64,000 nucleotides of DNA from a phage, in sequence record PX880101.1. One strand, written 5' to 3'. The notes under the pieces were generated by a model. The model ran no database searches, was not told the origin of the DNA, and was given only the letters and a program-made list of their open reading frames with translations. Positions 1 through 48,486 of the stretch are shown here, in pieces. The translations under genes and the position numbers were made by a program. Each line of letters opens with the position of its first letter. Position 1 is the first letter of the stretch.

Positions 1-872
1 CAGAGGAAGCAATTAACTCCTTGTATGCAAACCAGTTAGGGTTTGATGTTAAAGAGTTTGTTGAAGATCCTAGCCAGTTTTTAACTGATCAAGAACACGC
101 AGAGATTCACCAATCATGGGCAAAAGCTGGAAAAATCAAAGTGTTCAAACATTTCGGATCTATTCCGGTGGACGAGTTGATTACCAAGCTTAAGCAAATG
201 GTTTGCCTGTACCATTGCCGTTATATTGTGCTGGATCACCTGTCCATGGTAATTTCAGGGCTTAATGTTAAGGATGAGCGAAAAGAACTGGACATGGCTA
301 TGACTCAGCTGGCTGCGTTTTGTAAGCAGTTTAACGTGTTTATCTTGGTGATCGCTCACCTCAAACGTACAGAGATTGTGCCTCCTAAGGACAAGGATGG
401 TAACCCGTTACCTTTCTGGTATCCTGTGCGAAAAGAGAATTTGCGAGGATCGGCGGGGCTTGAACAGTTGAGTTGGGTAGTCATAGGTGTCGAGGCCGAA
501 GAAATGGTGGATCGTTCTCGTGGACGTGTCCGTCTGGTAGGTCTTAAAAACCGTCCAGCAAAAACTCTAGGTATTGCTGACACTTTGGTTATGGACCCGC
601 ACACAGGTAAGTTCCATGATGCCAGTAATTGGTACTGGGACAAAGAAATGCAAATGTTTACAGACGGAGAAGGTGGGGAGGTTGTTTGGAGACCTCAGGC
701 TATGTTTGAGGATCAGGAGCATGCAGTTGTAGAAACACCTATGGGCAAGGTTGTGGCTGATAAGGTTGTAACTCCTACTGTTAAGCCTGTTGACACGCAG
801 GAAGACCTCCAGTACGATGATCCATCCTCTGACCAGGTCCCTGGTTTTGAGGATGATGAAACGCCTTTTTAA
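1..872 (+). CDS. Replicative DNA helicase, C-terminal RecA-like domain (T7 gp4/DnaB-like); 5' end lies outside the window
   Basis: Frame is open back to the window edge; LRGSAGLEQLS and IAHLKR segments resemble the DnaB/gp4 helicase C-terminal motifs. Confidence 0.65.
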   Translation, partial: EEAINSLYANQLGFDVKEFVEDPSQFLTDQEHAEIHQSWAKAGKIKVFKHFGSIPVDELITKLKQMVCLYHCRYIVLDHLSMVISGLNVKDERKELDMAMTQLAAFCKQFNVFILVIAHLKRTEIVPPKDKDGNPLPFWYPVRKENLRGSAGLEQLSWVVIGVEAEEMVDRSRGRVRLVGLKNRPAKTLGIADTLVMDPHTGKFHDASNWYWDKEMQMFTDGEGGEVVWRPQAMFEDQEHAVVETPMGKVVADKVVTPTVKPVDTQEDLQYDDPSSDQVPGFEDDETPF

Positions 873-930: not shown

Positions 931-3354
931 ATGAGCATGTGGTCGTTCGATTTTGAGTCATCCGGTTTGCTGGAAGACCCAGATCTTTATTATCACTGCG
1001 GTCTGTTTAAAGAGCTGAATAAGAACCGTTTTATGCTGTTCCTTCCTCTAAATGACCGCACACACTACTCCGAGGAGGATATAGAAAAGGCTAAGAACTT
1101 CATTCTGGCAAAGAAAACTCTTTATAAAGATTTTGAAGTTCGCATAGCAGATTTTTCGGAGTTGGAAGGTTGGCTTACAGGCAATTCCGACTGGTCACCA
1201 ACAGCTTTGAACTGCCATAACTGCTACAGTTATGACTTTATGCTGATGGAGAGATTGTCCGGTATTCATTTTGATATGTTCCGTGATCCTAAATGCATGG
1301 GGACTATCAACGACCACCAGGTTAACCTGTTTGATACGTTGGCGATGAGCCGAATTTTGTGGCCTGATCGCCCTCTACCAAAAGGTTGTCCGGACGCTGT
1401 ATTCAACCCGGTTACTAAGAAAATGCAGCCTGTTGGTCCTCACGGCCTTATGGCATGGGGCTACGCCCTTGGTAACCAGAAAGTTCAAATTGATGACTGG
1501 CGCGATCTTCCGTTGTGGAAGTATGTGGATCGTGTATTCGAGGACGTTATCATCCAGGAGCTGCTCTGGAAAGAGCTGGTAGCGGAATCAAAAGGTGTAT
1601 TCTACGGCAAATCTGACATGCAGAACTTTATGTACGATCCTGCCAAAGAGAAGCCGAAAGGGTTCAAGAAGATCACCTGGAAGAACGCATTACGCCGGGG
1701 TATGCTGCAGCACTTCCTGATGGAGCTGCAGGCCCGTCAGGGTGTATATTTCGACATAGATGGAGCTATTGCTTTACGTGACCGTTGTGATGCGTGGATG
1801 AAAGAGATCGCTGATCGTGTTGAACCTCAACTTCCTTTAAAAGAGTTGTCAATGTCTCAGCGGCCCAAGTTCCCTGAAAAGCCGTTTAACCAAGATGGGA
1901 CAATCTCCAATAATGGTTGGAAATGGTTAAAAGATAAGCTTGGCTATCCTGTGGACATGAGCGCTTTAGAGTTCAAAGCCCCACCTAAGCGAGCATTTAC
2001 CTCCACAGGGGATGTCAGTAAGATGGGGATAAAATGGTGTGAAGAGATGGGCTGTAAAGACCCTGATAAGATGGCTGATTTCTTGAGGGGCTATATTAAG
2101 GGCACCTCCACACCACAACCTTTACCTAAAGAGCTAATGGATCAGGCAATAAGTGATCTACAGCAGAAGCGAATGCCTGACTGCAAGATACCTATGAAAA
2201 TCAGCAATCAGGACGACATTAAGCGATACCTGATCAGTGCTGGTTGGCTTCCGACAATGTGGAGAACTAAGGATGTAACTAAAGACAGCAAGAAGAAAGC
2301 TCTACCTGATGCAGATGTTGATGCACGAGTATATGCATATATGGACGAGCTTTTAGAGTCAGAGTATTGTGACCTGATTATCAACTTCTGGAACAAAACT
2401 GATGCTAAGTTCCAGACAACCGTGCACAAGTTCCGAAGCTTTCCTAACTCCGAAAGGATTAAAAAGGAAGTATTCGGGAAAATACGTAGAAAAGCCAGGG
2501 CACTTATTACTTCTCCGCAACTGAAAGATACGTTTGGACACCTATGTCCGAATCTTGAAAAATTGAACGGAGAGATGGCTAAAGATATCGTCTTGTGGTT
2601 ATCCTTGCGAAACCGCAGATCGGTCCTTGATCCAATCAAGGAGGATAAGGTTGATACTGGTCTTCTTAATCACCCACGTTTGAAGATTGACCATAAGCTT
2701 CCTGCTAAAAGTTCTGGATTAACAAACACTTCCCGACAGAAACACAGTATTTGTGCGAACATGCCTAAACCATCTCCTAAAGTGGTTATGGGTAAAGAGA
2801 TGCGTAGTCTGTGGGGTGTTCCTCCAGGATACTTTGAGATTGGTATTGACGGGTCCAACTTAGAGCAGCTTATCGGGGCTTGGGGTGCCTTTGAGTTCGA
2901 CAACGGCTTGTATTATGATGTTGTAAGTAACGGGGACGCACACCAAAACAATGCTGAGGCATATACAAAAGTAGCAGGTAGAGAGGTGTCTCGTAACGAC
3001 GGTAAACCTATCACGTATGGGGTTATGTATGGGGCACAAAAAGATAAAGTTGCAGATATGCTGGACATCTCTCCAGAGTTGGGACAAAGGGTAATCGATG
3101 CACTCTGGGATGCCAACCCAGGTCTTAAGGGGCGCAAAGAGGATCTGGAGAAATTCTGGGAAGCAACAGGTAAGAAGTTTATCTACTCTTTTGATGGTCA
3201 TGCTATCTGGACCCGATCTAAACACTCTTTACTTAATGCATACCAACAAAATGGCGGTGCATCGTTGTGTGACTTAGTTGGAATACTCATGCACCACCAG
3301 ATGGTGAAGCGTGGGTGGTACGATGAAGGTGTTCGTCGTATTATTTATTACCAT
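931..3354 (+). CDS. DNA polymerase family A, exon 1 (3'-5' exonuclease plus polymerase motifs A and B)
   Basis: FDFESSG (Exo I), IDGSNLEQL (motif A), KPITYGVMYGA (motif B), NAYQQNGGASLCDL (helix before motif C); the unspliced frame ends IIYYH-K-stop at 3355-3360, before motif C is complete. Confidence 0.85.
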
Positions 3355-3630
3355 AAATAACATTGTGGCTTCATAGAGTAATCTATGTCGAATAACCTCT
3401 TTAACTGCGGGAAGCCTAAACCTTATGGCAAGGTAATCCGCAACGAAGCGCTCAAAAGAGCGAACGCTCAGAGGCCATTCCGAAAGGAAGTAGACCAGCA
3501 AGTGCGGTCGAAATGGGAGGATTCCTGTGGTTGCTTATCATAGGAATATGAGATGGTCCGATCCTACGTGAAAACGTATGGCTATGCACGTAAAGGTGCG
3601 GGGTAGCTTAACGACCTACCTGAACTATTG
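3355..3630 (+). other. Candidate group I self-splicing intron without ORF, inside the DNA polymerase gene
   Basis: Follows exon base U (3354) and ends in G (3630); GTGG at 3365-3368 can pair with exon end CCAU; GNRA-capped hairpins at 3372-3387 and 3478-3489; R-like UCAGAGGCCAU (3468-3478) and S-like AGAUGGUCC (3551-3559). Confidence 0.55.
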
Positions 3631-3984
3631 GATGAGTACCAACTTCAAGTCCCTGACACACCGAAGTATAAGACTGTGTACACCTTCGACACAATCGAAG
3701 AACTGGAAGCATTTAAGGCAGAGCAGGAGGCCAAACTTCATGTGTTCGACGGTCATAAGTACAAAAAGGCACGCAAGGATGAGGACGGAAACGAAGTGGT
3801 TGACAGAGACGGAAACACGGTGTACGATCCTATCCTGAATGATGACGGAAAGCTTGAACTTATCTGGAGCCCTGTGGGTGAAATGGTGGTGCATTGCTTC
3901 TGGCAAGCTTCTAAAATGATGGGCGTCCCGTTCCAGATCACAGGTGAATACTTGTGTGGTCGTAATTGGGGTGATTGTCACTAA
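3631..3984 (+). CDS. DNA polymerase family A, exon 2 (motif C Asp-Glu through conserved C-terminus)
   Basis: No ATG (only in-frame TTG at 3628); frame starts DEYQLQV, completing YH|DE motif C, and ends GRNWGDCH, like the T7 gp5 and Klenow C-termini. Confidence 0.7.
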   Translation, partial: DEYQLQVPDTPKYKTVYTFDTIEELEAFKAEQEAKLHVFDGHKYKKARKDEDGNEVVDRDGNTVYDPILNDDGKLELIWSPVGEMVVHCFWQASKMMGVPFQITGEYLCGRNWGDCH

Positions 3985-4743: not shown

Positions 4744-5115
4744 ATGTTAGTAAAAGGTACCCACACAGTCAAACAACGTATTGAAGTTGAGATTGATGAT
4801 TGTGAGCTGAAGCATATTTTACGGTCATGCTCCAACGTTTTGCTCCTTAGTATTCTTCAGGAGCGAGCGGAGAACGAGTTCTTAAATGCATTGGCAGGCC
4901 GTCCCGGTGACTTCTGTGTGCGTAAGCGTGGTGACAACAAGTCGTGGTTGTGGGAGATCGATGCCGACTGGGATTACCACAAAAATGAGGGTATAGATGG
5001 GCCTATTCGTGAACTGACGGACAAAGAGATTCAGATGTACAATGAAGTTTGTCATTGGGCAACACGCCAACAAATTTACCTAGACCCTGTGTGGCTGATT
5101 GAAAATAGTCGTTGA
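4744..5115 (+). CDS. hypothetical protein
   Basis: Internal ATG preceded by AGAGGAGGT chosen over the listed upstream start at 4717. Confidence 0.5.
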   Translation: MLVKGTHTVKQRIEVEIDDCELKHILRSCSNVLLLSILQERAENEFLNALAGRPGDFCVRKRGDNKSWLWEIDADWDYHKNEGIDGPIRELTDKEIQMYNEVCHWATRQQIYLDPVWLIENSR

Positions 5116-6171: not shown

Positions 6172-6463
6172 AAACATCACCCCAGCAGGGTTCTTAAAAG
6201 TATACCGTGAACTGCTATATACTACAGAGGACAGTGTTCTAGAGTATCCAGAATATCTTTTGCTGTATAAGTATCTGCAGGAGGCTGGTGAAAATCTGCC
6301 AGTTAGTGCAGAAGGTGGTCCAAACTGGATATACAGCGCATGGAGAAAGGTTGACATTCTCCCAGACCCAGGTAAAGATATGGTAGTTTGGCAGCTTATC
6401 AACAACATCGGGATTCCAATCTTTGATGAAGCTGTTAAAATCTATTTTGAACTTGACGATTAA
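6161..6463 (+). CDS. hypothetical protein
   Basis: ATG 9 nt after AGGAG; the listed 6143 start has no SD. Confidence 0.45.
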   Translation: MKTENITPAGFLKVYRELLYTTEDSVLEYPEYLLLYKYLQEAGENLPVSAEGGPNWIYSAWRKVDILPDPGKDMVVWQLINNIGIPIFDEAVKIYFELDD

Positions 6464-6480
6464 TATCAGGAGACCTTAAG

Positions 6481-6726
6481 ATGACTGAAGCAGTTGCTCG
6501 CGCAGGACAGAAAGTACGTTGTGTTGAAGTGGGTTTTGGTGGCAAAGGGTGTCAAAACTTGACTCAAGGCAAGGAATATGCTGTTATCTCTGGTGGTGGC
6601 GACGAAAGTATTGTGTTCGAGGGCCACATCCTGGATGCTGAAAACTTTGAAATCTTTGACGACGATGGGGATCCGATCACCTGCCTGCTGGACGGGAATT
6701 GGGGAACTTTCGAAGTGATTGGCTAA
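6481..6726 (+). CDS. hypothetical protein
   Basis: AGGAGA SD 7 nt upstream. Confidence 0.55.
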   Translation: MTEAVARAGQKVRCVEVGFGGKGCQNLTQGKEYAVISGGGDESIVFEGHILDAENFEIFDDDGDPITCLLDGNWGTFEVIG

Positions 6727-6809
6727 CAAATACCTATTGTAATTTACAGAAGGGGATGCTAAAATAGTATCTCCTTCTATGTTGTTCAAATAAAATCGGA
6801 GATTCCATA

Positions 6810-7178
6810 ATGGAACAAATGAACGATCAAGAGTCGGTTGCGATGAACGAGCAAGAACAACCTCAAGAATTTTTCTTAGGGTTAAGTAAAGATCAAGTGT
6901 CTCTTTTGCTAGTGCTTTCTTCTTTCATGGGAAGACTTCAGGAGCTCACACAACAACCGGAGGCTGAACAATTATTTCAGGCTCTGCGTGAAGAAGAAAA
7001 ATATCGTCGTTTGGACTATGCCTTAGGTTGGGTAGCTCAACAACGAGATATGTTGATGGCCCTCTCTGGGACCACAAGTTTTGCAATGGGCCTGTTGGCT
7101 CAAGTTCAGGACAAATTAATTCAAGCAGGGTTTGCACACACGGCAAACACTAACGAAGAACAAGGAGACAAAGAATGA
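6810..7178 (+). CDS. hypothetical protein
   Basis: GGAGA SD; coupled to the next gene by ATGA overlap. Confidence 0.55.
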   Translation: MEQMNDQESVAMNEQEQPQEFFLGLSKDQVSLLLVLSSFMGRLQELTQQPEAEQLFQALREEEKYRRLDYALGWVAQQRDMLMALSGTTSFAMGLLAQVQDKLIQAGFAHTANTNEEQGDKE

Positions 7179-8446
7179 GCGTTATTCAACAATTCGCTAA
7201 CCCGATGAATCCGCGTGAAACTGTTTTACTGGCTCACGGCATGATTAAACGCGTCAGCATCAAGCCTATCAAAGGTGCTGATCCTACAACAGGTATTAAA
7301 ACCACTGTGTGGCAAGGTAAGAAAATTGAGTCCAGCCACACCATCTCTTTACTGATTTCTGAACTGGATTCCTCTGATAACCTACTTCAAGGTGGTGAAG
7401 AAGTTTGGATCAGTATGGGCGATAAGCTGCTTAAACCGGGTCATCAAGACTCTGTCTCTGTTAAAATTGATGACAAGTGGGAAACCGTAACGCCAGGATG
7501 GATCGTAAATATCCCTTTGAAGGCAAACGAGCATAACGGTAAGACCTACTACAAAGGCTCACTGGCTAAGATGGTTAAGCTGGGTGCAGGAGAGACTCCA
7601 GCAGCGACTCAGCAGCAAAAACCGCAACAAGGTGCACAATCACAAGGCCAGAAGCAGAAACCTCAGCAGAATGCCAATCAGGACGTTTTACGCATCTATG
7701 GTGATGTGACTCAGATTGTTGGCAACGTGGTTACTGTTAATGACCACAAGATTGGCGAAGGTGCTATGGTTGTAACTGATGAGCAGCTTAAAGACCTGGT
7801 GGTAGGTGGTCGTGTTGCAGCCATTGTTGACAAAGACACCGGAAACATTATCAGTGGTTTCAAAGCCTATCCTCCTAAGGCAGAGAACGGTACTCAAGGC
7901 TCTGGTGGCAAGCGTAAATCCTCTTACGACCCTATCGGTGTGGAAACGGGGCATAGCATCAATGCGTTGCAAATCATCCTGGATCGCGGGTTTAAGGTAG
8001 ACGACCCACTAGGAGTGGCTAAAACACTACACGTAGTCACTATTGAGCTTAAGAAAGAGTATGCTCAAGCCACCAACCGAACTGAAGATGAAGTAGGTGC
8101 CAGTGTCGGTAATGCGGTGTTGAACGCTTGTCGCCGTATTGACAAGAAAACGAAAGTTGATGATTTTGCAGCGGCAATTACTGCAGAAGCAAAAGATGTC
8201 TTGACTAATCTGGCTGAGCCGTTGTACGATTGGATCAAGAACGGTGCTGGGTCAACTGACCATCAAGAACCTCAGGCTGCCAAACAGGAAGCAGCTCCAC
8301 AGCAAAACACTGTAGACGCTCCTCCTGTAAATGATGGGGAAGATGACCCGATGGATCAGAATCCAGCACAGTATGACTTCTGTGATGACATACCTTTCGC
8401 TCCGGTAGGTCTGCAATATGGTAAAAGTAGAATCTACGCATTGTAA
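7175..8446 (+). CDS. Putative ssDNA-binding protein (Q-rich linker, acidic tail with DDIPF motif)
   Basis: Low-complexity [20 protein letters not shown] linker and acidic segment DFCDDIPF resembling the E. coli SSB tail, but 15 residues follow the motif; position after helicase and polymerase. Confidence 0.4.
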
Positions 8447-41929: not shown

Positions 41930-41991
41930 TTGGCACCTCCTCTGCTTTCATTACGGCAATTATAACCAACTCAACAAAGCTTTGTCAACAA

Positions 41992-42465
41992 CTAGTCTAC
42001 CTGAACCCAACCGCCTGATACTTTTTTAAACATTCTTTGGTTATCACTGCCTCGGAACGGTTTCTTGGTTGGTAAATCTTTTACATACTTACCGTCAATG
42101 ATGATATCAGCCAGTTTAAGAACATCACTAGAGATATGGTCAAATGTGAACCCAGTATATACAAGAATAGTTTTCTTGTCACCAAATTTTTCCTTAATTT
42201 TCTCCATCAGGCTAATAATATCTGGCTCATTATAGTATGCTAAGGGTTCTCCACCCAGTAGAGAGATACCGCACACAGACGGGTTATCTAAATCTGACAA
42301 GATTTTTTGCAAGTCTTCTTCAGTGAACTTCCTCCCCTTATCTTTTGACCAAAATGCCTGATTAAAGCAACCAGGGCAAGCGTGTGGGCACCCAGATACC
42401 CACAAGGCAGTTCTAATACCTGGTCCTTCGGTGTAAGATATTTCTGTGTATCCAGCAATGTTCAT
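41992..42465 (-). CDS. nrdG: Anaerobic ribonucleotide reductase activating protein (radical SAM)
   Basis: CPHACPGC CxxxCxxC cluster; adjacent to nrdD. Confidence 0.85.
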   Translation of the reverse strand: MNIAGYTEISYTEGPGIRTALWVSGCPHACPGCFNQAFWSKDKGRKFTEEDLQKILSDLDNPSVCGISLLGGEPLAYYNEPDIISLMEKIKEKFGDKKTILVYTGFTFDHISSDVLKLADIIIDGKYVKDLPTKKPFRGSDNQRMFKKVSGGWVQVD

Positions 42466-42578
42466 AGATACTCCGCATCACATTTAGGGCAATGCCAAAT
42501 AAAATCGTCTAGTGCCTTGCACCAACGAAGATTACAACTACAGCCGCACTTGCAAATTTTATAAATACCTGATGACAT
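42462..42578 (-). CDS. hypothetical zinc-ribbon micro-protein between nrdD and nrdG (38 aa)
   Basis: ATG after TAGGAGGTG; CKCGCSC...CPKC; stop overlaps the nrdG ATG. Confidence 0.4.
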   Translation of the reverse strand: MSSGIYKICKCGCSCNLRWCKALDDFIWHCPKCDAEYL

Positions 42579-42641
42579 ACTGCACCTCCTAGCTCACTGT
42601 GTGTCAATAATATGCCACATCCTTGTGGCTTTTGTCAAGAA

Positions 42642-44765
42642 TCAGCAACCACAACTTCCGTAGTGCTTAACTCGCTCGATAACTTCCGCTTGCTTACCTT
42701 TATTGTAAGGACGGGAGTTAGGACTGGAAAGGTATCCAGACACACGTCGAATTACACTGATCGTTCCCTCTTCATGGTTTCCACACTCTGGGCATACAAA
42801 GCCTTTAGCTGTTGCACTGAACTCACCAGAGAAACCACACTTGAGACATTTATCCACAGGTTGGTTAATACCAAAATACATAATGTGTTTATACCCGAAG
42901 TCAACAAGAGCCTCTAAAGCATCCAGGTTGTTTTTCAGGTTAGGTGTTTCTACGTATCCGATGTTGCCACCAGAGGAGATCATAGCAAAACCTTCCTCAT
43001 ACTCCCACTTATCAAAAGGAGAGCTATTTATCCATACTGGCTGATGGAAACTGTTGGTGAGATATTCATGCTCGTGCTTCAACACTTCCGGATATTCACG
43101 ATCCAGACAGGTTGCAGCTTTATAGCATAGACTCTCAGAAGGAGTGCCGTACAAGCTAAATGCTAGTCTACTTTCCTTCTTGTATCGCTCACAAGCATCT
43201 CTCATGTGCTGAAGGATTCCAAGAGCTAAAGCCTTGTCACCCTCTCTGCCCAAAATCTGACAGGTTTCATACACACCGATATACCCAATACTGATGGAAG
43301 CGTACCCGTCATAGAAGAGTTTATCAATACTCTCTTCAGGATCCAGGCGAGCAAGAGCGCCTTCACACCACATGATGGGGTTCTGCCCTGCCTTTGTTCC
43401 TTTTAGACGATTAACCCTTACAAGGTGAGCCTCGTATGCAAGATCCAAGTATTCGTCAAGAACTGCAAAGAAATCAACACCTTCCGTCTTGGCTTTTGCC
43501 GCAATCATTGGCAGGTTAAGGCTAACAACGCCTAAGTTAAATCTGCCAAGGTATTTCTCCTCGCCTGTTTCCAAGTCATTGTATTTGCTAAGAAAACTCC
43601 TGCAACCCATGCTAGTTACTTTGCCATCTGTCGAGCCTGTCACTTTTCTATTTAGTGGTACAGATACGAAGTCAGGATAGATACGTTCTGCACAGCATTC
43701 CAGAGCTAATCGTTTCAAATCATAGTTAGGATCCCCAGGGTTCATGTTGACACCCTCTTCCAGGAAGAACAGCACTTTAGGGAACACAGGTGTGATACGT
43801 TCTTCACCAAGACCCATTTTGTGGACTTTCAGGTAGTTTTTGGTAATCATTCTACCAAAGACCGAGGTATCCAGTCCTAAACTCAATGTGATGAATGGAG
43901 TTTGCCCGTTGACAGAAGTTAACGTGTTGATTTGATAGAGCAAAGTCTGCATGCTGTCAAATACGTCTTTATCTGTCATTTGCATTGCAACAGTTTCAGC
44001 ATCCGGCAACCAATGTTCCTGGCAAAATTTAAGGTTCTTCTCATAGGTTGCTTCAGCATACTGTGCCAGATAATGATCAATATGGCTCATAGTCTGACCA
44101 CCATATTGAGCACTAGCTACCGCACTAGAGATTTGGCTAAGGATTGTTGTTGCAACCCCTATTGACTTCGGCTTACTGACATAGGCGTTACCAATGTTGA
44201 ATCCGTTTTCCAACATATCTGGATAATTTACCAAACAACAGTTTGTTAACGGACTGATCAAGTAGTCAAGATCATGCACATGGATGAATCCTTTATTGTG
44301 CTCTTCGGAGACACGGTCTGGCAGGATCTGTGTTGATGCAAGGTGTTTGCTAAGAATACCTGCAAGCAGGTCGCGATGAGTGTGTACATGATTAGTAGGC
44401 TTATTTGCGTTTTCTTTTGTAAATTCATCACAAGTTCGATCCAAGAAGCCACTAATATCTGCAAGCAGTTTTCCACCTGCCTCTCTGTTATTATCTCTTG
44501 TCTGTCTATACTGGATGTATTCTCTGGCTGCACATTTTAAACCCATATCCATAAGAGCATCTTCAACAAGGATATGGATATTTTTTACAGAGATCGTGCA
44601 CTGGTCGGTTGGTAGATTGTTAGCAACAACTTCATTAACCGCGCAGGCGATCCGGTAAGCTTCTTCTTCAGTATGTCCAGACTCAAGTAAGGCGGACTCT
44701 GCCGCCTTGATCACCTTAATTCCGTTATAGAACTCTTCTCTACCGTCCCGTTTTACAACTTTCAC
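42642..44765 (-). CDS. nrdD: Anaerobic ribonucleoside-triphosphate reductase (class III) with ATP cone
   Basis: N-terminal ATP-cone KRDGREEFYNGIKV; glycyl-radical motif RRVSGYL near the C-terminus; cysteine cluster. Confidence 0.9.
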   Translation of the reverse strand: MKVVKRDGREEFYNGIKVIKAAESALLESGHTEEEAYRIACAVNEVVANNLPTDQCTISVKNIHILVEDALMDMGLKCAAREYIQYRQTRDNNREAGGKLLADISGFLDRTCDEFTKENANKPTNHVHTHRDLLAGILSKHLASTQILPDRVSEEHNKGFIHVHDLDYLISPLTNCCLVNYPDMLENGFNIGNAYVSKPKSIGVATTILSQISSAVASAQYGGQTMSHIDHYLAQYAEATYEKNLKFCQEHWLPDAETVAMQMTDKDVFDSMQTLLYQINTLTSVNGQTPFITLSLGLDTSVFGRMITKNYLKVHKMGLGEERITPVFPKVLFFLEEGVNMNPGDPNYDLKRLALECCAERIYPDFVSVPLNRKVTGSTDGKVTSMGCRSFLSKYNDLETGEEKYLGRFNLGVVSLNLPMIAAKAKTEGVDFFAVLDEYLDLAYEAHLVRVNRLKGTKAGQNPIMWCEGALARLDPEESIDKLFYDGYASISIGYIGVYETCQILGREGDKALALGILQHMRDACERYKKESRLAFSLYGTPSESLCYKAATCLDREYPEVLKHEHEYLTNSFHQPVWINSSPFDKWEYEEGFAMISSGGNIGYVETPNLKNNLDALEALVDFGYKHIMYFGINQPVDKCLKCGFSGEFSATAKGFVCPECGNHEEGTISVIRRVSGYLSSPNSRPYNKGKQAEVIERVKHYGSCGC

Positions 44766-45040
44766 TTTTTCTCTCCAAAACCATTCTTAACAAAAGAGAT
44801 GAAATCGTCGGCACCGCCTATATGGACACTGTCAAGATCGCTTTCTAAGAAGATCTGCGGCAACGTTCTGGGGACAATTGGACTGCACTTCTCAATAAGC
44901 TCTTCTTTTGTGTAGCCCTCGCCAAGTGTCTTATATACAAAAGGCAGACCTTTGCTGATTGCAAATTCTTTTGCTCTGACACAATGTGGGCAGTTATCCT
45001 TACCGTAAATGATGATGAAAAAAGATTTTTCGCAGCTCAT
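44762..45040 (-). CDS. Glutaredoxin / NrdH-like redoxin
   Basis: CPHC active site in IIYGKDNCPHCVRAKEF; 92 aa. Confidence 0.8.
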   Translation of the reverse strand: MSCEKSFFIIIYGKDNCPHCVRAKEFAISKGLPFVYKTLGEGYTKEELIEKCSPIVPRTLPQIFLESDLDSVHIGGADDFISFVKNGFGEKK

Positions 45041-45043
45041 ATA

Positions 45044-46132
45044 TTAAAACTCCCAAATTTCTTCTTCAGCGTCGTTAACAGTTGTGTTGACGCGGTAGTC
45101 AGTGTTCGACATTTCTTGGTTCGCCGTCTGTTGTAATGAAGGTTTCATCCACACCTGCATGAACGGTAGCGGGTCCTTTGTTGGCGGCACAAAGTCTTTG
45201 TCGATGTCGTAGTAATCATAAATCGGTGAGCAGTTATAGTCAACCCACTCTTTAAGCAACGGTGAGTTAAGACCTATAATCGCTCTTCCTTCGCTGAAAA
45301 TATAGTCACTCCAACCGTACTCTTTGGTTCGTACTTCATCAAAAATCTCTTTTAACTCCCCCTTTATCTCAAGGAAGCTTTTCTCCCATGCGGGATCATT
45401 AAGCAAGATATCAATGATGGCAAAATCACCTTTCGAATGTAGCATTTCGTCAAGCATGATTTTTTGAACAAGCTGCGCCACCTGAACAAAGATACCCTGT
45501 TCAGCTACTGCGAAAGTGCATGCAAAACTTGCAATAAACTCAATACTTTCCAGAGCTAAAAGCGCAAAAAGCGCTCTAAGAATGCATTTCCGCACAATAT
45601 CTTCTTCAACACTAGAAGGATCCAAGCGGTATTTTGCACCAATAACCTCAAGCTCTTGCATGTATTTGACAATAACGCCGGATCTGCTCAGAACGTTTTG
45701 GTTTTCCTGAATCTCTTCTATAATCTCACGGGCATTGGGGAGGCATTGTCTAACAATCTCTGAGTAAGTTAGTGCGTGAAGAACTTCAATCTCTGACTGT
45801 TTCATCAATAGAGTGAAAAGCTCACTATTAGTGATGAATGGTGAAAAGAGGCAGATGATCGATCTTGCCGCAACGCTATCAGCCTCCCATTGCCACATCA
45901 AGGTCTGCACCATCACGTCATAAGTTGACTTTGAGCATGTTACAAAATCTGAAATAGATTGCGACAAATCCACTTCATCCTCTGCCCAATCTTGCTCTTT
46001 TTGTTTTTTGTATAGTTCAAACAGTTGTGGATATTTTTTGTTGATAGAGTCGTACATACCCATTTGCTGTCCCAGAAACAGCGGATAGTCACCAGTTTTA
46101 TGAGCGGTGTTCTCAGCATTAAATACAGCCAT
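45044..46132 (-). CDS. nrdB: Ribonucleotide reductase class Ia small subunit
   Basis: Ferritin-like diiron fold segments; directly downstream of nrdA; internal ATG with GAGGT SD taken as start. Confidence 0.85.
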   Translation of the reverse strand: MAVFNAENTAHKTGDYPLFLGQQMGMYDSINKKYPQLFELYKKQKEQDWAEDEVDLSQSISDFVTCSKSTYDVMVQTLMWQWEADSVAARSIICLFSPFITNSELFTLLMKQSEIEVLHALTYSEIVRQCLPNAREIIEEIQENQNVLSRSGVIVKYMQELEVIGAKYRLDPSSVEEDIVRKCILRALFALLALESIEFIASFACTFAVAEQGIFVQVAQLVQKIMLDEMLHSKGDFAIIDILLNDPAWEKSFLEIKGELKEIFDEVRTKEYGWSDYIFSEGRAIIGLNSPLLKEWVDYNCSPIYDYYDIDKDFVPPTKDPLPFMQVWMKPSLQQTANQEMSNTDYRVNTTVNDAEEEIWEF

Positions 46133-46170: not shown

Positions 46171-48486
46171 TTATAGTGCACAGCTTTCGCAATACGGATC
46201 TTCAACTGAACTATCTGCAATCAAAGGATAGTTCTTTCTGGTTTCATCTTCAGCCTGTTTCTTGGCATGAAGTTCCTCTGCCAAGGAGTCACCAGCACCA
46301 ACCCTAGAGTTTAAATAATACCATGTCTTCATCCCGAATTTAGTGGCACGGATAAGGTACCCTAACTGCTCCTTCATTGAAATTTTACCATCTTTCAACT
46401 TGGTGTAGTCTATGTATAAATCCGCGCTGATTGCCTGACCTGTGAATTTTTGAATCACGGCATACATATCGATCATGTCGTTAGTATCAACGTCCCAAGC
46501 CGAGGTGTAATACTCTTTCAACTCATCATAGTCAGGAACGATAAACAGCACCTGCCCTTGTGGCGACTTTTTAAAGATAATGTGCTCACGGACAGGATAA
46601 ACCCCGTTAGTGGTGTTTGTTGCCAGCGAAGAGCTTTCATTAGGCATATATGCTTCAAGAACGCTATTACGTAGCCCACCATTCTCAATGATTTCTTTAC
46701 GTAACCCTTCCCAATCCTGTTTAAGAGAAGGATCTTTCACCACGCTATCGACCTCTTTGTTATAGGTGTCGATTGGTAACCAACCTTCTGGATATTTTGT
46801 TTTATGCATCCACTCGCAGACACCACGCTCTTTTGCCAACCGTAAACTTGCCTTATGCAAGCTGTAGCTGTGAAGTTCTGCAAGATCGTGAACGAGCTGT
46901 TTACTTTCAGGAGACCCGTAAGTAACCTTGTGGCTGGCAATAAAATGTGCAACATTGGTAAGGCCAACCCCGATGGATCTGCGTTTTTTAACTGTGCTTT
47001 CCATATTTTCATACGGATATGTCATGATTTCCATAACATTGTCAATCATAAGCACCGTATAGTATGCAACATCCTCATACTCCTCTGGAGTAACCCTCCC
47101 AGCTACAAGAGATGACAGGAAGCACAATGCAACCTCTCCATCATCAGCATCGTACTTGAAGATATTACGCATATCTGAATAGCCTTTTGTCGGGAGGGCT
47201 ATTTCTGCACACAGGTTGCTTGAATAGATCACATCTTTAAAAGGTGTATGTCTATTCATCTCATCTGTCCAGTATACGTACAGCCTTCCCACCTCAGTGC
47301 GCTGCGTGATCAGTTCAACAGCAAGATCTCTAGCTCGGATCCATGTTTTAGGAATACTGTCATCTTTAGCAATACGATCAACCTCTGCATCAAACTCCTC
47401 CATAGACATGGTGAAGATACCCTCATGCAGTTGAGGCGCGTGCTTATAAGAAACAAGCATCCAATCTAAATTCTTAGCCACACGGTTGATAAACGACCTA
47501 TTAATACCGATGGAGTAGTCCATGGTGTTGATTCTTTTTGAAGCAACAGTCATAGGGTTTCTCAAACGGATTAGCTCATCAATCTGCGGGTCCAGTGCAA
47601 GGAATGATACTGTTGCAGAACCACCACGTGATTGTTGTCTGTTCTCCTTAACCCCAGCATCAATACCTCGATAATATGGAATCTTACCCATATGTTTAAT
47701 AGTGTTACCACGAACACCATCGCCTGCAGATCTTGAGGATAAGTAGTAGCCGATACCTGCTTGGTTAACCGTCATTGTGTACGCAACTTCACGTGCCACA
47801 CCAATAGATTTTGCTGTATCGTCAGCTTTTATTACACAACAAGATGCATACCCTGTCTTACCTGTGCGCAGCCCGTTTAAGTACGGTGTTGGGGCATTGA
47901 TCTTTAAGTCGGACAGATAAGTGTATAATTTTACAACATCGTTGATACGACGTTCTTTCGGCATATTCTTCATGACAGCCATTGCTATCCCCATAAACAT
48001 CATCTGGGGAGATTCAAACAAGGTGTCTTTAAGAGTATCCTTGATCCCGTATTTGTCGCGAAACTGTTTAAGGACTGCATAGCCATAACCGAGATCTTTA
48101 CTGTGGTCAATAACAGCGTCTAAAGTGTTTAGCTCGGTAAAGCTATAACCCATATCCTCCCAATAACCTTTCTCAACCATGTCATTGTAAAATGATGGTA
48201 AGGAAGGGATCTTTGTAAACCCTCCAAAAGCCTCTTTATAGATCTGACCAATAAGAACACGACCAGCCATACGGGAATGTGCTTCGTCTTTACGGCTAAC
48301 ACAAGAGTCTATAATAGCTTGGTTAACTTCTTTGGTTGTACATCCATCATACAACCGCTTGTAGGCATCCAGTGCAATATGTGACCAATTGCCGTTACCA
48401 TCGTCACCGAAAATAGCTGCCTTATTTAAACGTTCTGGATCGAATGCCACTTCACATCCGTTGCTTTTAATTACCTTGGTGATCAA
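46171..48486 (-). CDS. nrdA: Ribonucleotide reductase class Ia large subunit with ATP cone
   Basis: N-terminal ATP cone VIKSNGCEVAFDPERL; 771 aa; C-terminal CESCAL tail. Confidence 0.9.
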   Translation of the reverse strand: MITKVIKSNGCEVAFDPERLNKAAIFGDDGNGNWSHIALDAYKRLYDGCTTKEVNQAIIDSCVSRKDEAHSRMAGRVLIGQIYKEAFGGFTKIPSLPSFYNDMVEKGYWEDMGYSFTELNTLDAVIDHSKDLGYGYAVLKQFRDKYGIKDTLKDTLFESPQMMFMGIAMAVMKNMPKERRINDVVKLYTYLSDLKINAPTPYLNGLRTGKTGYASCCVIKADDTAKSIGVAREVAYTMTVNQAGIGYYLSSRSAGDGVRGNTIKHMGKIPYYRGIDAGVKENRQQSRGGSATVSFLALDPQIDELIRLRNPMTVASKRINTMDYSIGINRSFINRVAKNLDWMLVSYKHAPQLHEGIFTMSMEEFDAEVDRIAKDDSIPKTWIRARDLAVELITQRTEVGRLYVYWTDEMNRHTPFKDVIYSSNLCAEIALPTKGYSDMRNIFKYDADDGEVALCFLSSLVAGRVTPEEYEDVAYYTVLMIDNVMEIMTYPYENMESTVKKRRSIGVGLTNVAHFIASHKVTYGSPESKQLVHDLAELHSYSLHKASLRLAKERGVCEWMHKTKYPEGWLPIDTYNKEVDSVVKDPSLKQDWEGLRKEIIENGGLRNSVLEAYMPNESSSLATNTTNGVYPVREHIIFKKSPQGQVLFIVPDYDELKEYYTSAWDVDTNDMIDMYAVIQKFTGQAISADLYIDYTKLKDGKISMKEQLGYLIRATKFGMKTWYYLNSRVGAGDSLAEELHAKKQAEDETRKNYPLIADSSVEDPYCESCAL

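Follow-up and report, generated by a model that had tools for sequence, protein, structure and literature searches.

The window, which is the whole stretch of 64,000 nucleotides of phage DNA that was analysed, comes from an rV5-like E. coli phage and matched Escherichia phage ECO111 5-P, a Vequintavirus, at 100% identity. In the order of the minus strand, nrdD is followed by a 38-codon micro-ORF and then by nrdG, and the genes for glutaredoxin, nrdB, and nrdA lie upstream (Table 1). The original prediction had placed a micro-ORF between nrdD and nrdG and the three further genes upstream of nrdD; the micro-ORF was present at the claimed coordinates on the minus strand, and the identities of glutaredoxin, nrdB, and nrdA were confirmed by Pfam matches and by their coordinates. 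The translation of the micro-ORF is exactly MSSGIYKICKCGCSCNLRWCKALDDFIWHCPKCDAEYL, with the cysteine pattern C9-x-C11-x-C13-x-C15-x4-C20-x9-C30-x2-C33. The nrdD gene begins with a GTG that overlaps the glutaredoxin stop codon, and its product carries an N-terminal ATP-cone and a C-terminal zinc ribbon of its own with a CxxC...CPxC motif. The start of nrdB was set at the ATG annotated in relatives (1089-nt CDS); the mechanical ORF reaches a TTG at 46192.

Table 1 Features of the ribonucleotide reductase (RNR) locus in the window, by position
Feature	Position	Strand	Basis or remark
nrdG, class III RNR activating enzyme (radical SAM), 157 aa	41992..42465	minus	Pfam Fer4_12 1e-42, Radical_SAM 1.5e-9
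Micro-gene, 38-aa Cys7 mini-protein	42462..42578	minus	ORF and translation; PHROG 20137 member
GGAG Shine-Dalgarno of nrdG	42471..42474	minus	Inside micro-gene codons 35-36 (Ala-Glu), 5 nt from nrdG ATG
Shine-Dalgarno AGGAGG of micro-gene	42585..42590	minus	Sequence; 6-nt spacer to ATG (42578-42576)
Sigma-70-like promoter match	42609..42638	minus	TTGACA, 18-nt spacer, extended-10 TG, CATATT; 10/12 (consensus scan)
nrdD, anaerobic ribonucleoside-triphosphate reductase, 707 aa	42642..44765	minus	Pfam NRDD 1.1e-160, Gly_radical 2.9e-23, ATP-cone 4.2e-13
Glutaredoxin, 92 aa	44762..45040	minus	Pfam Glutaredoxin 3.3e-8
nrdB, class Ia RNR small subunit	45044..46132	minus	Pfam Ribonuc_red_sm 8.7e-30
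nrdA, class Ia RNR large subunit, 771 aa	46171..48486	minus	Pfam Ribonuc_red_lgC 2e-100, Ribonuc_red_lgN

The translation signals of the micro-ORF also agreed with the original prediction, which had described a strong Shine-Dalgarno sequence and a stop codon overlapping the nrdG start. The AGGAGG sequence stands at a 6-nt spacer from the ATG, and an in-frame TAG lies 12 nt upstream of this ATG. In 7 of the 8 aligned upstream regions, which cover four lineages and include the lineage with the 54-aa protein, the AGGAG core was kept at the same spacing; the lineage with the 41-aa protein (L016) has AAGAGG at this position. At the other end, the TGA (42464-42462) overlaps the nrdG ATG (42465-42463) as ATGA. 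The overlap, together with the GGAG embedded in the last codons, suggests translational coupling of the micro-gene to nrdG. A sigma-70-like match, which shares sequence with a 6-bp hairpin (42614-42629), was found between the nrdD stop codon and the micro-gene. This element was conserved among Vequintavirus sequences, with other sequence in its place in L008 and L009 in the alignment, and we infer from the match that it may act as a promoter; the regional total of promoter matches in the consensus scan was not above the shuffled expectation.

Judged by its pattern of substitution, the micro-ORF is a genuine protein-coding gene that is very strongly conserved. In a count over 11 DNA variants and a 25-codon core, the variable codon positions were third positions in 18 of 25 codons, first positions in 8, and second positions in 4 (chi-square p = 0.0055). 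Across lineages, pS in this core was 0.5-1.0 and pN was 0.03-0.12; the pN/pS of the mini-protein was about 0.05-0.15, with synonymous sites near saturation. In the comparison of the window with L008, pN/pS was 0.06 for the mini-protein, 0.12 for the glycyl-radical domain of NrdD, and 0.48 for NrdG. All seven cysteines were invariant, and the codons of all six core cysteines toggled between TGC and TGT; a Trp, an Asp-Asp pair, and a Pro were invariant as well. The ORF was intact in 121 of the 122 matching phage records.

The gene had been described as unannotated, which proved incorrect, as the micro-ORF is already catalogued as a GenBank "hypothetical protein" and as PHROG family 20137. The match to phrog_20137 (hmmscan E 4.7e-30, 104 bits) aligned residues 1-38 with positions 1-38 of the 38-position profile. 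Many GenBank relatives annotate the ORF (for instance, JohannBauhin bas53_0180 / QXV81303.1), and identical or near-identical proteins occur at the same locus in related Vequintavirus genomes. Consistent annotation is nevertheless needed, because several GenBank records miss the ORF, misframe it, or replace it with a "terminator": rV5_ev147 is without annotation here, Murica has a terminator inside the ORF, and ORF114 of rV5 is in the wrong frame. The PHROG label "ribonucleotide reductase" was probably taken over from the neighbouring gene; the family in the analogous K1E slot likewise bears the label "DNA ligase". No homology to RNR proteins was found with Pfam, a PDB sequence search, or hhalign, and the label should not be counted as functional evidence. 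A literature search found no study of this mini-protein. A CRISPRi-ART study that targeted single genes of the Vequintavirus EdH4, namely those for the major capsid protein and rII, makes no mention of nrdD, nrdG, or ribonucleotide reductase (PMC11879866).

The gene is restricted to a single small lineage of phages (rV5-like) and forms a tiny family. Its carriers are Vequintavirus and three uncultured sister lineages, in all of which it lies between nrdD and nrdG, and, in addition, the podovirus ACG-C91. In GenBank, NrdG was encoded in 2134 phage records and the mini-protein in 122, and the mini-protein was missing from about 94% of the NrdG-encoding phage records. Of the matches from an exhaustive HMMER search over 1.84 billion representatives, two were spurious and just three were true relatives, namely P0007 (54 aa), P0009 (41 aa), and the deletion fusion P0011. 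In one homologue search, the query was a 41-aa sequence consisting of the 38-aa protein and three in-frame upstream codons. Three loci were found in IMG/VR and five in JGI metagenomes, and none among 185,579 bacterial and archaeal genomes. The mini-protein was present at 2 of the 46 IMG/VR NrdG loci, and a search of these 46 loci for positional analogues (any Cys-rich micro-ORF upstream of nrdG) gave only zinc-ribbon ORFs that were unrelated and non-adjacent (L047, L037-L039). Across phages and bacteria, the mini-protein did not generally co-occur with NrdD and NrdG.

Inside its own lineage, gene order with nrdD and nrdG was conserved. The order nrdD, micro-gene, nrdG was kept in four diverged rV5-like lineages (the window, rV5, 54-aa, and 41-aa types), so the conservation in other phages that had been proposed as a check was found; the ATGA overlap with nrdG occurred in the window type and the 54-aa type. 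In the nearest sister phages and contigs (L019 and L021), nrdD abuts nrdG directly. The neighbouring nrdG genes were 52-56% identical between carriers, and the genus contains an nrdG allele swap in which nrdG is just 53% identical to that of the window and the mini-protein 92% identical. Between the micro-gene and nrdG, rV5, Alma, and L016 have unrelated ORFs (190-390 bp), and these non-adjacent copies of the micro-gene keep their sequence, including the C-terminal AEYL; in L015, an insertion lies between the micro-gene and nrdD. The inserts that flank the micro-gene in relatives, on either side, are unrelated ORFs or an HNH gene. Other phages carry homing-endonuclease genes at the nrdD-nrdG junction (Matisse, K471, and segH of LZ2).

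In the podovirus ACG-C91, the same ORF occupies a variable slot upstream of the DNA ligase gene. Its identity to the window was 84% over 111 nt, the homology was confined to the ORF, and ACG-C91 has no annotated RNR genes. The GGAG-N5-ATGA arrangement is found ahead of the ligase gene as well. Between identical flanks, K1E has in this slot an unrelated 38-aa CxxC...CxxC ORF and vB_EcoP_B a 57-aa ORF, and the three alternative cassettes of the Vectrevirus slot share one type of 3' end (ATGA overlap and GGAG). The ACG-C91 copy is an unusually clean case of an ORF-sized cassette of ~110 bp moving between unrelated phages, with recipient slots that preserve translational coupling.

The mini-protein plausibly adopts a zinc-ribbon fold, as had been proposed. 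Two Cys-pair knuckles are split by a predicted beta hairpin; C30-P-K-C33 was invariant, and the 41- and 54-aa homologues have CxxC as their first knuckle where the window form has CxC. AlphaFold modelled the 54-aa homologue with a zinc-ribbon-like core that contains the beta hairpin (core pLDDT 73-81, moderate confidence), and the model of the 38-aa form was unusable (pLDDT 55). The top Foldseek matches of the 54-aa model in the PDB were all zinc ribbons (the NUDIX N-terminal ribbon 3cng, Rpb9, and ZifS), with rmsd of 1.0-1.2 Å over 33 residues and probabilities of 0.98-0.99, but with E values of at least 0.25, which are not significant. The cysteine knuckles agreed with the proposal; superposition of the modelled core on the three-stranded antiparallel sheet of known ribbons fell short of significance. 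The PDB sequence search aligned solely IWHCPKC with a knuckle of eL43 (weak, E 0.3), and Pfam (E <= 1), NCBIfam, and PADLOC gave no meaningful match for the mini-protein. In such a fold, one Zn would be held by the first knuckle (C9/C11 here) and the CPxC knuckle (C30/C33), and C13, C15, and C20 on the hairpin could form a second metal site or a binding surface.

Regarding the role of the gene, we give about even chances to the reading that it is a lineage-restricted, portable zinc-ribbon accessory micro-gene at a permissive junction rather than a subunit dedicated to the anaerobic reductase. In rV5-like phages, the micro-gene has been passed down at the nrdD-nrdG junction while both flanks were exchanged or interrupted, and the same ORF has been slotted ORF-for-ORF into the variable position upstream of the ligase gene in ACG-C91. 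The folded module might bind a partner macromolecule relevant to E. coli infection in general. Such a cassette may be tolerated before an essential gene without harm to its expression because the 3' end carries a Shine-Dalgarno sequence and an ATGA restart. However, the gene stands between nrdD and nrdG throughout the rV5-like lineages, two of which also couple its translation to that of nrdG, an arrangement to be expected of a functional partner. Outside an RNR context, the gene is represented by one isolate, ACG-C91, where it may have arrived recently as a passenger, and the fold depends on a model of moderate confidence and on non-significant structural matches.

The original prediction had named the micro-ORF an accessory component of the class III RNR. 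Beyond its position, this claim found no support, given the 122 against 2134 records, L019 and L021 without the gene, the swapped nrdG, the flanking inserts, and the ACG-C91 copy. A lineage-specific accessory that binds NrdD or NrdG and is made in step with NrdG through coupling is possible but doubtful. It could shield or stabilise the glycyl-radical domain, supply metal, or pass electrons through its extra cysteines to the [4Fe-4S] cluster of NrdG. The shared gene order in four diverged lineages and the ATGA overlap in the window and 54-aa types argue for this role, as do seven invariant cysteines, which exceed the needs of one Zn site, and a constraint equal to that on the NrdD glycyl-radical domain. 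Nevertheless, most NrdG-encoding phage records and the nearest sister phages lack the gene, the mini-protein stayed 92% identical despite the replacement of nrdG, unrelated ORFs stand between it and nrdG in rV5, Alma, and L016, ACG-C91 has an intact copy and no annotated RNR genes, and the PHROG label is apparently neighbour-derived.

We regard as unlikely the stronger proposal that the Cys7 mini-protein is a lineage-specific third component of the phage anaerobic RNR, that is, a metal or Fe-S micro-subunit that would sit on NrdD or NrdG and assist the generation or protection of the glycyl radical in the gut, with the ACG-C91 copy as a passenger. Should the mini-protein act together with NrdD or NrdG, it would be the first additional subunit on record for a class III RNR and a good illustration of a functional micro-protein. 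On present sequence evidence, it appears as one more zinc-ribbon ORFan from a well-sequenced phage genus.

It is improbable that the micro-ORF is mainly a translational-coupling device that loads ribosomes on, or regulates, the downstream gene (nrdG, or the ligase gene in ACG-C91), with the peptide being of minor importance. The ATGA overlap and the GGAG within the last codons in both contexts, and the like ends of all three cassettes of the Vectrevirus slot, would fit such a device, but the amino acid sequence itself is conserved, with low pN/pS and invariant Cys, Trp, Asp-Asp, and Pro, and the copies of rV5, Alma, and L016 that do not adjoin nrdG are kept through to AEYL.

A decaying relic, either of a duplicated NrdD C-terminal zinc ribbon or of a leftover homing-endonuclease zinc finger, is very improbable. 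The junction is a hot spot for homing endonucleases, the second knuckle, (F/I)W-x-CPxC, resembles NrdD ribbons, and the segments "MSSGIYKI" and "CKCG" are reminiscent of the N-terminus and zinc finger of I-TevI. However, strong purifying selection excludes decay. A GIY-YIG or I-TevI remnant was rejected, as GIY occurs in the Vequintavirus form only (SVFKI, GFKVKV, and GGFKVKI stand elsewhere) and Pfam gave no profile match at E <= 1. A duplication of the NrdD ribbon was not supported, as no profile homology extended across both knuckles: hhalign against 27 NrdD ribbons aligned only the 7-column, generic CPxC knuckle, and the PDB sequence search (E <= 10) did not bring up the NrdD structures of T4 and E. 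coli. That the region is non-coding intergenic sequence with a terminator and the ORF a chance occurrence is scarcely credible: the Murica record annotates a terminator within the ORF, and a weak hairpin lies there at 42525-42509, but this hairpin has 7 pairs with just 3 G-C and a tail, ACGATTTTAT, with a poor T run, short of the G+C-rich stem and T run expected of an intrinsic terminator in non-coding DNA, Rfam matched no family in the region, and the terminator is refuted by the codon-position pattern of a frame under purifying selection, the intact ORF in nearly all records and in diverged lineages, and the conserved Shine-Dalgarno sequence.

Compared with known systems, the window protein is a member of phrog_20137 (QXV81303.1 of JohannBauhin; PHAGEALMA_232), from which it shows no difference. 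The C-terminal Zn(Cys)4 ribbon of NrdD is encoded directly upstream of it, and both proteins have a CxxCG ... (F/I)(V/W)xCPxC-like arrangement, but the spacing differs (18 residues against 8-21), and homology beyond that of a generic ribbon is not demonstrable from these sequences. The gene shares its insertion-tolerant junction with free-standing homing-endonuclease genes and further optional genes of T4-like and other phages, such as segH in LZ2 and the HNH gene in Vibrio phage K471, but its product is much smaller than any nuclease could be and is without nuclease motifs. The K1E protein of the SP6/K1E-like slot between the nucleotide kinase and DNA ligase genes (38 aa, CxxC-x17-CxxC) is like the mini-protein in size and zinc-ribbon architecture, and its gene likewise stands directly ahead of a DNA or nucleotide metabolism gene with an ATGA overlap, but the two have no sequence relationship beyond CPxC. 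With the classical zinc ribbons (Rpb9/TFIIS-type, eL43/L37ae, the 3cng NUDIX N-terminal ribbon, and Thermus ZifS), the mini-protein shares two Cys knuckles around a beta hairpin and a second knuckle of the form hydrophobic-W-x-CPxC, and the predicted core superposes at 1.0-1.2 Å over about 33 residues, though with sequence and Foldseek E values that are not significant; unlike them, it has a CxC first knuckle in the window form and three extra invariant cysteines on the hairpin.

Genes and features of the ribonucleotide reductase (RNR) region in the window and of corresponding loci in other phages
Sequence	Feature	Coordinates	Strand	Basis
Window	nrdA	46171-48486	-	Pfam
Window	nrdB	45044-46132	-	Pfam
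Window	glutaredoxin	44762-45040	-	Pfam
Window	nrdD	42642-44765	-	Pfam ATP-cone, NRDD, Gly_radical domains
Window	Cys-rich NrdD C-terminus	42642-42665	-	
Window	micro-ORF, 38 codons	42462-42578	-	sequence
Window	antisense ORF, 60 aa	42382-42564	+	
Window	nrdG	41992-42465	-	Pfam radical-SAM Fer4_12 domain
Window	sigma-70 consensus	41959-41988	-	
Window	Lys-rich ORF, 37 aa	41816-41929	-	phrog_7670
L005 (rV5 type)	nrdG allele	3502-3975		
L006 (Alma)	frameshifted micro-gene	3501-3686		
L008 (54-aa type)	insert in nrdD	6352-7492		
L009 (54-aa type)	insert in nrdD	2129-3961		
L016 (41-aa type)	insert in nrdD	2378-3364		
L015 (54-aa type)	HNH-like ORF, 169 aa	3399-3908		
L017 (metagenome contig)	deletion fusion	652-840		
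L004 (ACG-C91)	micro-gene copy	4998-5108		
L065 (K1E)	slot ORF, 38 aa	799-915		
L066 (vB_EcoP_B)	slot ORF, 57 aa	799-972		phrog_15259

Every gene of the RNR region is encoded on the minus strand. The micro-ORF is preceded by a Shine–Dalgarno sequence (AGGAGG, 42590-42585) with a 6-nt spacer to its ATG, a TAG 12 nt before this ATG closes the reading frame, and the TGA of the micro-ORF overlaps the nrdG ATG (ATGA). A GGAG within codons 35-36 is located 5 nt upstream of the nrdG start. The position, strong Shine–Dalgarno, stop overlap, translated sequence and upstream neighbors described in the original prediction were all borne out by the sequence and Pfam. The nrdD gene starts with GTG, overlapping the glutaredoxin stop (44762-44765), and the Pfam ATP-cone at residues 1-91 supports the resulting 707-aa form; in some GenBank relatives, e.g., JohannBauhin, NrdD is annotated as 636 aa without the ATP-cone. 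The NrdD C-terminus ends in ...HYGSCGC; some relatives have SCSC, L015 has GDCCSIY, and an unrelated phage (L041) has GCGC. Directly downstream of nrdG, a conserved Lys-rich ORF (rV5 ORF118) is preceded by a perfect 12/12 sigma-70 consensus (TTGACA-18-TATAAT).

Public databases already contain both the gene and its family, and the window has an identical counterpart among sequenced phages. Over the 3-kb region, identity was 100% with Escherichia phage ECO111 5-P and 97-99.9% with many rV5-like members of the genus Vequintavirus. Nineteen GenBank records labelled Campylobacter phage (MG0656xx) also closely match E. coli rV5-like phages in this region (97.8-99.9% identity for the three listed) and are probably mislabelled or derived from contaminating coliphage. 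The description of the micro-ORF as unannotated was incorrect in general because many related records carry it as a "hypothetical protein" (e.g., JohannBauhin bas53_0180) and its product matched phrog_20137 end to end (E 4.7e-30). The rV5_ev147 record leaves it without annotation, and the original rV5 record has an overlapping ORF114 in a different frame. PHROG names phrog_20137 "ribonucleotide reductase" and phrog_13972, the family matched by the mini-ribbon of phage K1E, "DNA ligase"; in each case the name seems to come from the neighboring gene, not from homology. A literature search found no publication on the mini-protein.

To determine the distribution of the mini-protein, several databases were searched. 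It was detected by tblastn in 122 of 50,697 phage records, and the matches listed, ACG-C91 aside, were rV5-like genomes (~130-140 kb) or short pieces of them. A word-indexed search of 5.8 billion proteins gave eight clusters. Exhaustive scanning of 1.84 billion representatives with HMMER gave five matches, three of them genuine (54-aa form, 41-aa form, and a deletion fusion); the other two were spurious repeat proteins. Three loci were found in IMG/VR and five, all rV5-like, in JGI metagenomes, and the mini-protein was absent from 185,579 prokaryotic species (one genome per species). Two copies appear to be damaged: a deletion in an ENA metagenome contig joins micro-gene codons 1-20 to the ORF116 tail (P0011), and a codon-36 frameshift in phage Alma gives a 61-aa product. 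These may be natural loss-of-function variants or assembly or sequencing errors.

The micro-ORF had been proposed as an accessory component of the class III RNR system. The gene order kept within the rV5-like lineage means that an RNR role may exist, whereas all the other evidence argues against a dedicated one. An NrdG homologue (E <= 1e-20) was present in 2134 phage records, compared with 122 for the mini-protein, and only 2 of 46 diverse NrdG loci in IMG/VR, both rV5-like, carried the micro-gene. In the closest sister contigs (L019 and L021, with NrdG 63-65% identical to that of the window), nrdD is followed by 46 nt and then nrdG, and the two genes also abut in most other phages among these IMG/VR loci. 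A lineage-specific RNR accessory is therefore a rather unlikely reading.

The position between nrdD and nrdG, whose conservation in other phages had been suggested as a check, was kept in four rV5-like lineages. The micro-gene overlaps nrdG by ATGA in the window type and the 54-aa type (L008, L009, and L015); ~390 bp with ORF115 and ORF116 intervenes in the rV5/Alma type, and a 34-aa ORF plus ~190 bp in the 41-aa type (L016). The rV5-type insert (ORF115, 34 aa; ORF116, 78 aa, phrog_3249) accompanies the rV5-type nrdG allele, one of two in Vequintavirus with a protein identity of only 53%. Between lineage types, identity was 52-56% for NrdG (including window versus rV5, within one genus), 70-87% for NrdD, and ~88% for the mini-protein core. 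The pS between the window and rV5 was 0.14 for nrdD, 0.53 for the micro-ORF, and 0.69 for nrdG; therefore, the micro-gene lies at or beyond a recombination boundary. Between these two phages, the mini-protein sequence was retained while that of the adjoining NrdG was not. A free-standing HNH-like ORF separates nrdD from the micro-gene in L015, and HNH/Seg-type genes occupy the junction in other phages. HNH-ORF-bearing inserts, probably introns, split nrdD itself in L008, L009, L016, and slur16-type GenBank records. Both nrdD and the nrdD-nrdG junction are mobile-element hot spots.

The coding status was assessed in 11 sources (the window; Murica, rV5, Alma, and Aya; two IMG/VR contigs; three Logan contigs; podovirus ACG-C91). 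Of the variable sites in the 25-codon gap-free core, 18 were third, 8 first, and 4 second codon positions (p = 0.0055), and each of the six core Cys codons alternates between TGC and TGT with Cys invariant. Between lineages, pairwise pS was 0.5-1.0 and pN 0.03-0.12. The AGGAG core and ATG spacing were kept in 7/8 aligned upstream sequences, including the 54-aa lineage; L016 has AAGAGG. These comparisons indicate that the micro-ORF is a real gene. For window versus L008, the mini-protein (pN/pS 0.06) was more constrained than the glycyl-radical domain of NrdD (0.12) and NrdG (0.48). A mere coupling or leader ORF is improbable, since the constraint acts at the amino acid level and the sequence is kept also where the ORF and nrdG are not neighbors. 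The antisense ORF over the micro-gene and the nrdG start is open in relatives as well, lacks a Shine–Dalgarno, and is probably a by-product of Cys/Trp-rich codons on the coding strand.

The invariant residues are C9, C11, C13, C15, N16-L-R-W-C20, L23-D-D, I27-W, C30-P, C33, and E36-Y-L, with three invariant Cys beyond the zinc-ribbon set. His29 is not a ligand because it is Tyr in Aya and ACG-C91. A canonical CxxC forms the first Cys pair of the 41- and 54-aa homologues, and the 53/54-aa forms carry a Lys/Glu-rich N-terminal tail. AlphaFold gave a poor model of the 38-aa form (pLDDT 55); the model of the 54-aa homologue was better in its core (pLDDT 73-81), where a beta hairpin separates the knuckles. 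The best Foldseek matches of the latter in the PDB were all zinc ribbons (3cng NUDIX N-terminal ribbon, Rpb9, ZifS, and C11; rmsd ~1.0-1.2 Å over ~33 residues), but no E-value was significant. Sequence searches reached only the generic second knuckle (eL43 IWHCPKC, E 0.3, and weak L37ae matches). "Zinc ribbon" is thus a reasonable label for the predicted fold. That the ORF is left over from an NrdD ribbon duplication or a GIY-YIG endonuclease is very improbable: selection contradicts it, GIY is not conserved, Pfam gives no match, and the hhalign alignment is restricted to seven columns. Non-coding sequence can practically be dismissed; the "terminator" placed inside the micro-ORF in the Murica record is a weak hairpin with only three G-C pairs inside the constrained frame, and no Rfam family matched the region.

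We give roughly even chances to a portable, lineage-restricted zinc-ribbon accessory micro-gene. It would have lodged at the nrdD-nrdG junction, a site tolerant of insertions, and its product would be a metal-stabilized binding module that does not specifically target the reductase. Small zinc-ribbon ORFans are common in phage genomes; the strength of constraint and the clean cassette transfer make this one mildly notable.

This transfer was seen in ACG-C91, a 43.7-kb SP6/K1E-like Vectrevirus whose 56 annotated features include no RNR gene. Its intact 36-aa copy (MSVFKICKCGCRCNLRWCKALDDVIWYCPKCNTEYL) has a GAGGA Shine–Dalgarno and overlaps the DNA-ligase gene by ATGA, and its DNA was 84% identical to the window over 111 nt, with homology restricted to the ORF. 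Between identical flanks, the same slot holds an unrelated CxxC-x17-CxxC ORF in K1E and another ORF in vB_EcoP_B. This slot of interchangeable micro-ORFs lies between the nucleotide kinase and DNA ligase genes in Vectrevirus. The ORF-confined homology and the variable contents between identical flanks thus show that the Cys7 ORF was transferred as a cassette of ORF size, and that the variable slot which received it keeps translational coupling. In a phage without annotated RNR genes, it has replaced, or can be replaced by, another mini zinc ribbon: the K1E slot ORF resembles the Cys7 mini-protein in this respect, whereas its sequence is unrelated.
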